From Promethearchaeota archaeon (GTDB lineage: Archaea > Asgardarchaeota > Hermodarchaeia > Hermodarchaeales > Hermodarchaeaceae), in the NCBI GenBank assembly GCA_048938385.1, contig JBHLMG010000002.1, positions 64,001 to 128,000 on the forward strand: DNA of 64,000 nucleotides, read 5' to 3'. The notes under the pieces are model-generated. The model was given only the letters and a program-made list of their open reading frames with translations. It did not search any database and had not been told where the DNA came from. Of the stretch, positions 32,283 through 40,474 are shown one piece after another. Positions within the stretch are counted from its first letter, which is position 1. Each line of letters starts with the position of its first letter. The translations under genes were made by a program, and so were the position numbers.

Positions 32283-33266
32283 TCAAAGACTGGCTTCCTT
32301 TTCACCTTGCTTCCAGCTTTTTGTCCGGAAAAAGTCATAAAAATTTGCCTCAACCACACTCAATTCCAGTGGAGCAATTCGTTGTTCATTTAATGCCTGA
32401 AGGAGTTCTGGAATTTGAGTATTAGGGTTTTCTACAAAGATTTTCAGGCTTCCGCGACCAGATCGGATCGTGTTTTTCACAAAGGTAACTTCCTCTACTT
32501 GGCGAATTGTGTCCGTGGTAAGCCGGTTAAAGGTAATCTCGATTGCCTCTCCTTTACCGGTGAGGGATTGCACGAGTTCGTCCGGATGTCCTTGGAGAGA
32601 AATCCGTCCTTTCTCCAGTAAAACGACTCGGCTGCAATATTCCACGACTTCCAGATCGTGAGAAATTAAGACCATGGAAGTTCCATAATGGTAATTCAAT
32701 TGTTTCAGGTAATTGAGGAGTTCATGGCGAAGATGGGCATCAAGTCCCGTTGTAGGTTCATCGAGTAGCAAGATGGGGGGCTGATGGATTAAACCTACAC
32801 AAATAGAAACGCGTTTGCGTTCGCCCCCACTGAGGAGCCTTGCAGGTTTATCCATTAAGGACTCACTAAATCCTAAAATACCTAAAAGCTCAATCGCCCG
32901 GCGTCGAATTTCTTTTGCGGGTATACCATACATGCGACCAAAGAAATGCGCGTTTTCTAGAGCAGAAAACGGATAATACAAGCTTTGGTCTTCATGCTGA
33001 GGAACATACCCCGTTGCGTAGTGGATTGCGTGCGCTTCCTTTTTCACATCAAATCCGGCGATTTGTACATTTCCTCGATAGGGCTTGAGTTGGGCGGTCA
33101 TCACCCGTAAACAGGTTGTTTTTCCAGAACCAGATGCTCCTATAATTCCAAGGATTTCTCGTTCTCGTGTGTAAAAACTAATGTCGTGAAGAATCTTGAC
33201 TCGTCCTATCTTAGCAGAGGCGTGGTTGAATTCAATTATTTTAGGCGATTTAGCTTCTGCAGTCAG
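32283..33266 (-). CDS. ABC-2-type ATP-binding protein (second ATPase); probable CTG start
   Basis: The track ORF starts at 33104, but Walker A GASGSGKT lies upstream in frame and the frame is open to the TGA at 33270. LSGGE, LLLDEPT and SH motifs present. Confidence 0.88.
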   Translation of the reverse strand: MTAEAKSPKIIEFNHASAKIGRVKILHDISFYTREREILGIIGASGSGKTTCLRVMTAQLKPYRGNVQIAGFDVKKEAHAIHYATGYVPQHEDQSLYYPFSALENAHFFGRMYGIPAKEIRRRAIELLGILGFSESLMDKPARLLSGGERKRVSICVGLIHQPPILLLDEPTTGLDAHLRHELLNYLKQLNYHYGTSMVLISHDLEVVEYCSRVVLLEKGRISLQGHPDELVQSLTGKGEAIEITFNRLTTDTIRQVEEVTFVKNTIRSGRGSLKIFVENPNTQIPELLQALNEQRIAPLELSVVEANFYDFFRTKSWKQGEKEASL

Positions 33267-33269
33267 CTT

Positions 33270-36200
33270 TCACACCCCTGTTTCTTTGGCAAGTTCACGG
33301 AGCCGTTTGAGCATTTCTTCTAGTCTTTCAGCAGGATCGCCTGATGTGATGCGGAGTTTTTCGAGGCGGTCAATCCGTCGGTCAGTAAGTACCCATTCTA
33401 TCTCACGGATAATTGCCTGAGTTGTATTCATGGTATTTTCAATGTCTTGAAGTAACTGTTCATCTAATGATGAGGTACGCATCCGTCGCTGCCGACGGTA
33501 TTGGTTGAGAAAATATCCTGCAATGATGAGCGTTAAGGCAATGGAGAAAAGGGCGATTTGGAGCATCATGATTGCAAAGAAGTTGGGTGTCGGGGGTGGG
33601 AGTGGTCTATCGGGTGCTGGGTCGTAGTAGAAGATCATGTAGGCTGTGCTGCTCGCGTAAATTCCTGGTAGCGTGAATACTGTAATAGTAAAGGTTTGGG
33701 TGGTGTTCACTTGAGTATCCAGTCCAGTCCAATTAGCAAATAGAAATGTACCATAGCGTCCTTCTTTGACTTCAAAGGCAATGAAAAAGAAGCGTGAACC
33801 GTTCGGAAAGGTGTAGATAATGAACATTTCAAGGTCTTCGACACCTTGTCCAGTTTGATTATAAGCATCGATTACGAAACCTGCATCTCTTCCAATGGTA
33901 AACCTAGAACCGTTTCCGCCAGTAGGGCGGATACTTATGCTCACGGTGTTACGGAACAGATGTCTGATCGTTTGGTTAGCAAATCGGAGGTTGTCAAGGG
34001 TATATATGTGGTCATTACCAAATATCCTAGAACATCCAAGGACAAAGAGTTCTTTACCCACATCTGTGTTATAAACGCCAACCGGAGTGCCATTAGCCCA
34101 GGCAAAGGGTTGAGCCGGTCCGATCTGTGGAATCGTTGTCCCCCCCGTAATCGAAATTACATTAACATTGACGGTGAATGGCATCGTGGGGTGCAATTCG
34201 GTGGTATTTTCACCAGAAATTCCCCCTCCTAATTGGATGCTATGATTGAAGAGTAACTGGTTCAATGTAGTGTGATTAGATGATGTGGAGTCATCTGCTA
34301 AGACAAGAACTTTGAATCCCGAATTAATGAACTCGGAGATGGCATTGGTTTCATTTTGCGTAAAGGCTTTCTCGGGATCACAAAGGATTAACCCGTCAAA
34401 GAGGGAGAGAATAGTGGAATTGATTTCTGTAACTAGGGGAATTTCTGCAAGGTTAAGTTGAATATCAGCAAAGAGCTGTCGCAACCGGGAATAACCGGTA
34501 AGGAGGCTGTCACCTATTTCTTCAAAGAGTACAAGTATTTCATCGAGGCTTAACTCTGAAAAATCGAGGTTATCAAGGCGGGTGAAATCTAATCCTTGGT
34601 TATGAACTGTGTCGAAGAGAACCACCGCCTTTGGATAGGTGATGTTGATAATAAAGGGTAAGGTGAGATGCCAGCCATCCGATGCACTGAGTACGAGATT
34701 TCCGTAATAGGGTCCTGCTTCAATGAAGGTGGGAATAAGGGTCAGGATTTGAAACTGTGTGCTCCCACTGATGTCATATATGTGCTGGGGGGTAAGAGTT
34801 GGTGGATTCTCCCACCGCGTCACATTTCGATCAAAGGCATAGTCCAAGGATGAATTGTAATACTCGGTGATTTCAACAAAGAGATGAGGAATAGGTGTAG
34901 ACGAAATTAAAGAGAAGTTGTAGATGGCATAGTCGTTGGGGAATTGGAGAGTCATAGGACTGAAGGGGAGAATGGAAGGAATCAGCATACGCATTCTAGG
35001 ATGGGTGCAAATGAAGGCGTCACGAAATACAAGGTTATCTAAGGGGTATAGGTCACTTGGAATGATGGGAATGAAGAGGTCAAAATCTATCATAGGAGAG
35101 ACGATCCATCCGACGAAGTAGATGTCAGTCACTTCGGGGTCCCATTCAACTTCGAGTGGTTGAAACTGGAAGGGTTCAAAGATCCCTATTTGGAAATACC
35201 TCGCAAATACTGCCCCGCCCTGAGGTTGTGATCGATTAGTAAAGAATGCAGCAATTGAATCCACTCCTACATCCCCAATATTCAACGCGATGATGCTGGT
35301 TGAATAAGCGCTGGTCGTAGTGCCTGTGCGCGGTAAATCCACACGAATCATACAGAGATCTGTCAACGGGACTACTACGGATTCATGGTTGGTGCCATTG
35401 ATTCCGTATGTGAGTGCAGTCATGTTTCTACCAAATCCTAGGGTCATCGATACATTCAACGCCTTCGCACCAGTGGATATGTTTCCAATCTGCCATTGAG
35501 TACCTAGTCCTATCCCTTCATCGCTCGAATAGGTCGTTGCGCCAGTCAAGGTTTCGTTTTGGACTCGTGCAGTTACTTCCTCATAAGGACCAACCTGAAA
35601 ATTGGAAAAGGGAGTGGTGCCATTCACTCCAACGAATTGGTCAACCCGTGAGGTCTCGTTAGGGGGTAAGGCATCACGGTGAATGTGGAAAAGCTGAGCT
35701 GTATCGTTGAAGAAAGCTTGTTGGACAGAAGTGTCATTCGCCCCAGAAAAGAGGTCGAAATTCCAGAGGCTGTATAAGCAAATATCCTTCACCTCTTCTG
35801 CTCCAATATTTACGAAGAAAAAGGAGAAGCGAAAAGCGTTCGCAGATGGACCATTATTTAACCGCCAACACTCGACTCGTGGGATTATCAACAAGTCATT
35901 GTATGATAGTATCCCGGTGGCACGAACATAATCTCCAAAGGGGAGCCCGGTCCAGTGAAACTCTTGTTCGATATCCAGAAAGGCCAACCCTGTGGGGCTA
36001 TTGTTTCCTACCGCAAGGGAAAACATTCCCATTAACATATGAAACATCGTGAGATTCGTTACCTGACTCGTCACTATACCTGCAATTGCAGTAGCGTACC
36101 CACTGAGCAATAGAGTTACATTTTCTTGAGTTCCCTCACTCATTACCAAACCATAATATGGTAATCCAGGACTTACGCTTCGTGCCCGAAAACCTGTGGG

Positions 36201-39337: not shown

Positions 39338-39352
39338 TACCTCCGTTCGAAT

Positions 39353-40474
39353 CTAGGCGAGCGTTCGCTTCCTCCACAGCACCAAGATGGATACAATGGT
39401 TCCAGTAATGATGTAGATTAGTATTCGACTCATTTCAGCAGTAATAGCGATCAGAGGTAATCCCTTAAACGCGGTTTCTCGAATTAGGGTCATCCCTAAA
39501 TTCATGGGTAAGAATTCGCTGATAATTCCTACATCGATGAACATGCCACTCAGAATCATCATCCCTAAAAGTAGGAAGAGAAAACCTTGGTTTGCCTGCA
39601 AGCGGGAAGTCGCCAAAGAAGATATCACTACTCCTGAGACCGATCCGCTTAATGACGTAAGGGTGACAATGGTCATGAGTGTTACTAAATCTGTAAACAA
39701 CTGTAGCTGAAACAGCCCTACCCAAAGAATGAGAAGTAATAGTCCTTGGATCATTCCGATAATCGTGTAAGCAAATATCTTGCTAAAGATCACCTCGATT
39801 TTACTCGTAGGTGTTAAAAGCATTCGGCGTAGCGGAATATCTCCCACAATAGATTGAGAGGAAATGAGAGCAATTGCCATGAAGATGCAAAAGACGACAA
39901 GGAAGGCACCTACTTGAATGGCTAACCGGTCACCTTCGGGTACAAATTCAATCACTGGAATTGGTAGAATTTCACTACGAATCCATCCTAACCGTTGTCG
40001 AAAAAGCAACGATGCCTCAGTCACCGCGATAATTGCGGCTCCTTGCCCTTGTAACTCTGTGTTACTTGTATGTACATCAACTGTTGTTGGTAGATCTAAT
40101 GCCAACGCGTGTTCAAATCCTTCAGGTATCACCAGATATGCGTCAAGGCGTCCCTGATATAACGCAAGATATGCAGCCGACTCGTTCTCATACAGTATTA
40201 CAGTCACACCATCCAACTCTGCTAGGGTATCAGTGAAATTCTCTGCAAGGTTCAAACCTGGATATGTATCAGTCGTATCCAGGTTGATGACGCCAACAAA
40301 TAATGGCACCGTCTCTGTTTGAACATCATTCTGTTGAATCGCTATTGCGAGAGTCCCTATCGTTATCACGGGCAACATAAAGACTAAGATCATTGCCGTT
40401 CGATCTTTGATGATTGTCTGTATCTCTTTTCCGATAAGGGCTAGAGTACGCTTAAGTGGCTGAAGGAATTTCAT
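39353..40474 (-). CDS. ABC-2-type transporter permease
   Basis: KEIQTIIKDR, TM1, extracellular domain (LVIPEGF), RMLLTP..SKI, LSGMF..FLP motifs. Confidence 0.9.
   Translation of the reverse strand: MKFLQPLKRTLALIGKEIQTIIKDRTAMILVFMLPVITIGTLAIAIQQNDVQTETVPLFVGVINLDTTDTYPGLNLAENFTDTLAELDGVTVILYENESAAYLALYQGRLDAYLVIPEGFEHALALDLPTTVDVHTSNTELQGQGAAIIAVTEASLLFRQRLGWIRSEILPIPVIEFVPEGDRLAIQVGAFLVVFCIFMAIALISSQSIVGDIPLRRMLLTPTSKIEVIFSKIFAYTIIGMIQGLLLLILWVGLFQLQLFTDLVTLMTIVTLTSLSGSVSGVVISSLATSRLQANQGFLFLLLGMMILSGMFIDVGIISEFLPMNLGMTLIRETAFKGLPLIAITAEMSRILIYIITGTIVSILVLWRKRTLA

Follow-up and report, generated by a model that had tools for sequence, protein, structure and literature searches.

What is a giant subtilase-like membrane protein without its catalytic residues doing among the genes of an ATP-binding cassette (ABC) exporter? 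The locus that raises this question lies at positions 32283-40474 of a 64,000-nucleotide stretch of DNA (hereafter the window, in which all coordinates are given unless another locus is named) from a Promethearchaeota archaeon of the Hermodarchaeaceae, an Asgard lineage (GenBank assembly GCA_048938385.1, contig JBHLMG010000002.1, positions 64,001 to 128,000 of the forward strand). A first-pass annotation, made from the sequence alone, had described four tightly coupled minus-strand genes encoding an ABC-2 permease, an ATPase with a duplicated N-terminal domain, a membrane protein with a dead subtilase (S8) head and a GIFT domain, and a second ATPase, and had proposed that the pseudoprotease is a subunit of the transporter rather than an enzyme. 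We consider it probable, at roughly 0.6, that the operon encodes a single conserved membrane machine, restricted to Asgard archaea and based on a type-V (ABC-2/ABCA-like) exporter, with the S8-GIFT protein as an auxiliary subunit.

All four genes are there, co-directional on the minus strand and packed as described. The permease gene (39353-40474; 373 aa, ABC2_membrane_3) ends in a TAG stop, which is followed by a 15-bp gap and by the ATG of the ATPase 1 gene (37679-39337; 552 aa, in which a 240-aa N-terminal extension comes before ABC_tran, residues 257-400), itself preceded by the motif GGAGGT. The TGA of ATPase 1 (37681-37679) and the GTG start of the S8-GIFT gene (37682-37680) share a GTGA overlap, and the S8-GIFT gene (33270-37682) encodes 1470 aa with a Peptidase_S8 match at residues 180-474 and weak GIFT/ABC_transp_aux matches. 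The reading frame of ATPase 2 (32283-33269), of the DrrA/GldA class, comes last, across a 3-bp junction. By the names of near-identical proteins and loci, the window belongs to a Hermodarchaeum-like genus of the Asgard phylum.

The first line of evidence for this reading is linkage. We found the order permease, ATPase 1, S8-GIFT, ATPase 2 in 9 loci of the same genus and in 2 loci of its sister genus (where contigs end inside the cluster), and again, with identities of 30-53%, in families f6 and f26; permease orthologs occur in all linked loci. In family f18, which includes a complete genome, ATPase 1, permease and ATPase 2 follow one another on one strand and the S8-GIFT gene is divergent and directly adjacent. 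Synteny across Asgard genomes, which the first-pass annotation had named as the way to check its proposal, is thus conserved in f1, f6 and f26 and rearranged but adjacent in f18, with f7 as the family in which the S8-GIFT gene is unlinked. Across 151 genomes of the phylum, the N-terminal domain of ATPase 1 and the C-terminal half of the full-length S8-GIFT protein were detected in the same five families (both in 16/18 genomes of f1, 5/5 of f7, 6/6 of f18 and 1/1 of f26, and in 26/26 versus 25/26 genomes of f6), counts that come from related and thus non-independent genomes, overstate the support and are descriptive only. Both components were jointly missing from two incomplete genomes of the genus. 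Beside the distant dead relatives P0049 and P0062 we found genes for an ATPase, a permease, a second permease and a long ATPase, followed by the S8 gene. Because these gene sets accompany very distant relatives, the association of S8-GIFT proteins with a two-ATPase ABC-2 system is, judging from gene content, old, and a fully heterodimeric transporter would be the natural reading of the two permease paralogs.

The second line of evidence concerns the S8 head (residues ~171-490, 36213..37172, minus strand), which has the subtilisin fold and signature (PF00082, 148 bits, E 4.6e-43) and whose closest solved relative is the archaeal protease Tk-SP (3afg, E 6e-49). Compared with Tk-SP, the catalytic Asp is replaced by Ser188 (codon 37119-37121), the His is kept as His231 (36990-36992), the oxyanion Asn is replaced by Asp325 (36708-36710) and the nucleophile Ser by Ala430 (36393-36395), the alignment at position 430 being ungapped and anchored on both sides. 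The complete Asp-His-Ser triad and oxyanion Asn of active S8 peptidases are therefore absent. The losses are shared by the family: among 34 close orthologs, the nucleophile is Ala in 33 and the oxyanion Asn is Asp in all 34, whereas loss of the catalytic Asp is limited to the window and one f7 ortholog. Searching 1.8 billion cluster representatives with a profile yielded 61 clusters with E < 1e-30; in nearly all of the 34 full-length relatives inspected the triad is incomplete, and those that are larger and more distant have lost the His too (to Arg, Ser or other residues). The exception is P0043, which has Asp, His and Ser all in place but Asp instead of the oxyanion Asn, and which, by these residues, may be a live or reverted member. 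Its locus is L034 7001-11320, with no ABC genes adjacent; Ser at the nucleophile position is found in one other relative, P0034, a partial genus-level ortholog.

The head is at the same time the most conserved region of the protein, with 45-51% identity to other families as against ~25% elsewhere. Because the catalytic residues are lost family-wide and yet the head is best conserved, it appears to be a pseudoenzyme under selection, and this pattern suits a binding module. The dead head of the first-pass annotation is in this way supported, on sequence grounds, as a conserved pseudoprotease. The database label “S8 family serine peptidase”, carried by the 1470-aa protein and by dozens of related clusters, cannot mean a canonical serine peptidase. 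Two S8-GIFT orthologs contain in-frame stops, one TAG in G016:C72 (L011/L021) and one TAA in G023:C73 (L024), for which pseudogene, assembly error and recoding are all possible.

To describe the rest of the protein, we used a model of residues 480-1470 built from a 17-sequence alignment (predicted local distance difference test, pLDDT, 74), in which five parts are resolved. Upstream of the head, hydropathy indicates an N-terminal hydrophobic segment (residues 14-33, 37584..37643, minus strand, as are all features of this protein) that may be a signal peptide or a signal anchor. Downstream of the head comes a beta-supersandwich (residues ~501-879, 35046..36182) like the N-domains of GH15, GH94 and GH116 enzymes, with structure matches (VIA-align) to 1ug9 (Z 20.4, root-mean-square deviation, rmsd, 3.3 over 239 residues) and to GH94 cellobiose phosphorylases (Z ~19.4, rmsd 3.0); 5h3z_A aligns over model residues 24-292. 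Then follow a P-like beta-sandwich (residues ~895-1018, 34629..35000), recognised by its alignment to site-1 protease (S1P/MBTPS1; 9csd_A), and a GATase1-like GIFT (GldG/IFT52) domain (residues ~1019-1245, 33948..34628); these two together (model residues 416-766) superpose on residues 479-873 of S1P 9csd_A at Z 18.3, the subdomain limits of S1P being those given in PMC11231238. The GIFT assignment of the first-pass annotation is real: the modelled domain matches IFT52 (5fms_A) at Z 23.1, with an rmsd of 2.0 over 191 residues, and without any structure, the alignment profile finds IFT52 among the PDB sequences at E 1.3e-9. PF09822 scores 25.6 bits in the window (cut-off 34.7) and 36.8 bits in the ortholog L022, and PF23355 likewise is under its cut-off in the window and over it in L022.

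Between GIFT and the membrane lies an immunoglobulin (Ig)-like beta-sandwich (residues ~1247-1354, 33621..33944; model strands 768-875), and the GIFT, Ig-like and transmembrane (TM) parts align together to OST48 (8b6l_N, 6s7t_G; Z ~20 over 326-332 residues). The protein ends (33273..33590) in a TM helix (residues 1365-1394) with a basic stop-transfer stretch behind it and a cytoplasmic tail, helical and ~75 aa long (residues 1395-1470), as delimited by hydropathy and model helices; the motif pattern of the tail is conserved in four other families (f6, f7, f18, f26) and also in P0049, a distant relative. The ectodomain carries 34 N-x-S/T sequons versus ~11.6 expected from composition, a roughly threefold enrichment, and is putatively heavily N-glycosylated. 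Elsewhere in the same genome, a 2305-aa open reading frame matches the GIFT region weakly (E 2e-4; G000:C48:27622-27876), and the representative search also returned many giant proteins of 2000-4800 aa with several GIFT stretches.

The transporter genes themselves are of the ABC-2 class. The permease matches PF12698 (84.1 bits, cut-off 31.6) and PF01061 (35.2 bits, cut-off 26.9) and, weakly, the TM domain of ABCG23 (E 0.012); it has six predicted TM helices and, by hydropathy, an extracytoplasmic loop of ~130 aa between TM1 and TM2 (residues ~49-180). Both ATPases are ABC proteins (PF00005, 96 bits for ATPase 1 and 99.6 bits for ATPase 2) with intact motifs: the residues of Walker A, Q-loop, signature, Walker B/Glu and H-loop do not vary among 15 orthologs of ATPase 1, and the catalytic motifs of ATPase 2 are all invariant across its orthologs. 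The two are closest to the DrrA/GldA class while scoring under the cut-offs of those models (for ATPase 2, TIGR01188 drrA at 183 bits and TIGR03522 GldA at 144.9 bits with a cut-off of 402.6). The best PDB matches of ATPase 2, which probably spans 32283-33266 (~327 aa, nucleotide-binding domain (NBD) plus C-terminal regulatory domain), are the NBD and R-domain of ABCA3/4/1 (E 2.9e-66), and the model of ATPase 1 (pLDDT 83.5) matches 4yer_A over NBD and C-domain at Z 29.4.

What sets ATPase 1 apart is its N-terminal extension (residues 1-240, 38618..39337, minus strand), which contains two TrmB-C-like repeats. The duplication claimed by the first-pass annotation exists, although by sequence the repeat is weak (residues 17-101 versus 123-206, 31% identity, E 1e-4). 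PF11495 (Regulator_TrmB) matches the extension in two stretches (31 bits, cut-off 22.2), each confined to profile positions 163-230 of 233, which make up the C-terminal subdomain of the effector-binding domain, and it matches 14/15 orthologs of ATPase 1 (best E 1.9e-9). Searching the PDB sequences with a profile of the N-domain returned chance-level matches only (e.g. NCX1, E 0.06), the structure matches of the whole ATPase 1 model were taken up by the NBD, and an Atlas feature search yielded nothing usable. No helix-turn-helix family match indicated the N-terminal winged-helix DNA-binding domain of TrmB-type proteins, the extension being fused to an ABC NBD instead.

From one permease and two ATPases, the first-pass annotation had suggested a heterodimeric or a switchable NBD pair. 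The two ATPases are indeed different and intact, are retained as such in every lineage examined, and are each other's nearest paralogs in this genome (38% identity). Because of this, and because the distant relatives carry two permeases and two ATPases, gene content favours the heterodimeric pair over the switchable one.

Taken as a single machine, the operon could work as follows. The permease would form a dimer with its large loop facing outward, powered by ATPase 1 and ATPase 2, probably as a heterodimer. The two cytoplasmic TrmB-C-like barrels on ATPase 1 would be a probable sensor of a small molecule, possibly a sugar, that gates hydrolysis. The S8-GIFT glycoprotein would be a GldG-type auxiliary subunit held by its C-terminal TM anchor, with its helical tail in the cytoplasm, the dead subtilase head serving as a binding module beside the supersandwich, which resembles parts of carbohydrate enzymes. 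A lipid or lipid-linked glycan may then be exported to or through the ectodomain scaffold, which would receive or organise the cargo outside the cell.

Several observations weigh against this assembly. In the 5 genomes of f7 the S8-GIFT gene lies on another contig among unrelated genes while the operon of ATPase 1, permease and ATPase 2 is intact, and the full-length relative P0043, the very one with Asp, His and Ser, is not beside ABC genes. The non-independence of the counted genomes, given above, tells in the same direction. A homodimeric permease with two different NBDs is unusual, and the ATPase 2 of the window has no canonical start codon, which makes its expression level uncertain.

Among the closest known systems is GldAFG of Flavobacterium gliding motility. 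This ABC-2 transporter has GldG as its auxiliary protein, and GldG contains the GIFT domain (Beatson and Ponting 2004, as cited in PMC11231238). Like GldA/GldF/GldG, the window combines an ABC-2 permease, a DrrA/GldA-class ATPase and an adjacent membrane-anchored GIFT/ABC_transp_aux protein, and its extracytoplasmic GIFT domain is placed, as in GldG, between hydrophobic segments (here 14-33 and 1365-1394). However, the window has two different ATPases, one of them with tandem TrmB-like domains, where GldAFG has one, and the GldA-equivalog score (144.9 bits on TIGR03522) is far below the cut-off of 402.6. Its auxiliary protein is ~3 times larger, with the dead subtilase head, supersandwich, P-like and Ig-like domains and a conserved cytoplasmic tail, and it is encoded by an archaeon, which has neither an outer membrane nor a gliding apparatus.

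The S8-GIFT protein taken by itself resembles S1P, which consists of S8, P-like, GIFT (617-998) and TM parts (PMC11231238). The likeness drawn by the first-pass annotation holds, with one inserted domain: both begin with a prodomain-like region and continue with S8, P-like and GIFT, then one TM helix and, in the cytoplasm, a basic stretch. In contrast to S1P, an active autoprocessing serine protease, the window protein has a dead head with catalytic Ser and oxyanion Asn replaced, a supersandwich of ~400 aa between S8 and P-like, a longer, helical tail, and a gene coupled to an ABC operon. By sequence its head is closest to Tk-SP; the protein has no MBTPS1 family match, S1P does not figure in the top 60 PDB sequence matches when the entire protein is searched, and the profile of the C-terminal half reaches S1P only at E ~1, at the equivalent GIFT positions.

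Live counterparts exist in other Asgard lineages, as S8-P-like-GIFT-TM subtilases of 1219-1338 aa with a cytoplasmic zinc ribbon (L039-L041, P0112, P0123, P0146 and others). They share the core with the window protein, whose family profile matches them from ~416 on, but they keep Asp, His, Asn and Ser, are without the supersandwich and have the zinc ribbon instead of the helical tail. One Asgard genome (L041 4288-9974, minus strand) and one metagenome contig (L043 3086-8735, plus strand) each have such a live GIFT-subtilase in a tight operon with genes for an FtsX/MacB-like permease and an ABC ATPase; where live GIFT-subtilases are transporter-linked, the system is thus of FtsX/MacB type, whereas that of the window is ABC-2. 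The window family looks like an inactivated offshoot of a class of S1P-like archaeal proteases. Because the pairing of GIFT-subtilases with ABC systems recurs, it supports, by analogy with GldG, the idea that a GIFT module is the mark of surface proteins associated with ABC systems.

Two further groups are alike in part. The clostridial CspC and CspA are S8-fold pseudoproteases that act as germinant receptors, as binding or signalling modules (PMC6636752, PMC7200643). They share with the window an S8 fold with lost catalytic residues, but they are soluble spore proteins without GIFT, membrane anchor or ABC partner, and the NCBIfam CspC model scores 31 bits here versus a cut-off of 675. ABCA lipid exporters and DrrAB-like ABC-2 half transporters resemble the transporter moiety, in that the NBD and C-terminal regulatory domain are closest to ABCA3/4/1, the halves of ABCA have a large TM1-TM2 loop like that of the permease, and full-length ABCA also has two different NBDs. 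Unlike these, the window has its subunits on separate polypeptides, one permease gene in the clade, an extra TrmB-like domain and an extra giant single-pass partner. In the literature that we searched on Asgard site-1 protease, on GldG-like/PF09822 proteins and on ABC or subtilisin proteins of Hermodarchaeota, we found no description of this system.

Two other accounts of the operon deserve weighing, both of which we regard as unlikely. In the first, the complex is a mechanotransducer and not an exporter: ATP hydrolysis would move the pseudoprotease ectodomain, which would bind or activate another surface factor, e.g. a live subtilase. It would resemble FtsEX, which controls the catalytically dead LytM protein EnvC. 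In its favour are the conserved cytoplasmic tail and a dead head that is the best-conserved region of the protein. The live GIFT-subtilases directly behind FtsX/MacB-type genes in L041 and L043 suggest that ABC control of GIFT-subtilases is recurrent, and in this genus a live 1574-aa subtilase is encoded three genes away. However, the permease is of the ABC-2/type V class and the ATPases are closest to the DrrA/GldA/ABCA exporters, not to the type VII systems of FtsX/MacB, which are the class known for mechanotransmission.

The second account makes the S8-GIFT protein an independent surface or S-layer-like glycoprotein, either a client of the transporter, which might provide a lipid-linked glycan for its decoration, or a mere neighbour of it. 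The unlinked genes of f7 and P0043 point in this direction, as do the very high sequon density (34 versus ~11.6 expected) and the resemblance of the GIFT-Ig-TM part to OST48 of the oligosaccharyltransferase. Strict co-occurrence with the transporter across five families argues against it, together with an adjacency that survives the rearrangement in f18 and is also seen in very distant relatives, and a conserved cytoplasmic tail would be unexpected in a passive surface protein.

That the head is still an enzyme, acting through a non-canonical nucleophile such as Thr429 with His231, is highly improbable: His231 is kept in the close clade, Asp at position 188 in most orthologs and Ser at the nucleophile position in P0034 and P0043, but Asp188 is lost in the window and is Gly in L022 and P0040, the oxyanion Asn is Asp in all close and most distant orthologs, the His is lost in distant relatives, and the ungapped, doubly anchored alignment at 430 leaves the nucleophile at Ala.

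The last alternative arises from the junction between the S8-GIFT and ATPase 2 genes, to which the first-pass annotation had drawn attention. The S8-GIFT stop TGA (33272-33270) is followed by AAG CTG and by the ATPase 2 frame in the same reading frame, and upstream of the Walker A of ATPase 2 there is no ATG, GTG or TTG. The two genes could therefore be read as one fusion by TGA read-through, with a cytoplasmic tail whose topology would fit, but the genus relatives and one f6 relative have their own ATPase 2 ATG just after or overlapping the S8 stop, usually in another frame, no larger, fused form appeared among the relatives, and the window simply has CTG for ATG, so that we rejected this reading as barely credible. 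Because the relatives have this ATG of their own, usually in a different frame, the in-frame continuity is, from these comparisons, incidental. The window CTG occupies the exact position of the ATG in genus relatives (most of them have it within a few codons, and L019 has ATA), so that ATPase 2 likely starts at the near-cognate CTG at 33266 (33266-33264), perhaps aided by translational coupling. Four sediment runs, including two other than the likely source, gave contigs in which this CTG (33264-33266) and the Ser188 codon are both unchanged, and because these codons are identical in all four runs they are real population features and not assembly errors.

We then consider the genes around the operon. 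A Rab/Ras-family small GTPase (31647..32171, minus strand; 174 aa, PF00071, 162.9 bits) lies 111 bp downstream of ATPase 2 on the same strand, as the first-pass annotation had noted. This gene and the aminotransferase gene behind it are present in 8/8 genus loci that reach that far, and neither was found in the loci fetched from f6, f7, f18 and f26. Because the linkage is confined to the genus, the Rab gene, correctly placed as it was, probably does not belong to the system. Behind the operon of one f6 genome comes a gene for a protein of >1673 aa (L025 2-5020, minus strand) with bacterial TSP3 repeats and BBS2/BBS7-like beta-propeller matches.

Divergent from the permease gene is that of a 305-aa soluble protein of no Pfam family (40625-41542, plus strand), which is kept in position in both genera of the family at 58-79% identity and did not turn up next to the operon outside this family; as a candidate for a hidden second permease it was rejected, having no hydrophobic segments and no Pfam match. 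On the other side, three genes away and convergent on the operon, lies the second giant subtilase (24835-29559, plus strand; 1574 aa), with an apparently intact triad (DTG 230, HGT 445, GTS 660); it sits in a stretch of raised G+C (0.52-0.545 versus ~0.45) and is conserved in the genus at only 34-60% identity.

The operon is a new composite, in which an ABCA/ABC-2-like exporter with two ATPases and a TrmB-like, putative cytoplasmic sensor is joined to an S1P-like surface protein. Only some Asgard lineages have it, but there it is strongly conserved, which indicates that it probably has a core cell-surface function; very little is known of the surface biology of Asgard archaea, which bears on models of eukaryogenesis. 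It is a long shot, though one that we set out here, that the GIFT-subtilases of archaea, whether live or dead, form one broad class of surface modules that ABC ATPases drive or gate, that the Asgard S8-P-like-GIFT-TM core is the prokaryotic stock of eukaryotic S1P, perhaps also of the GIFT-TM part of OST48, and that the operon encodes a surface machine powered by ATP and gated by sugar, whose working head is a pseudoenzyme. The live and dead S8-P-like-GIFT-TM proteins of Asgard genomes provide a prokaryotic comparison set for the architecture of eukaryotic S1P.

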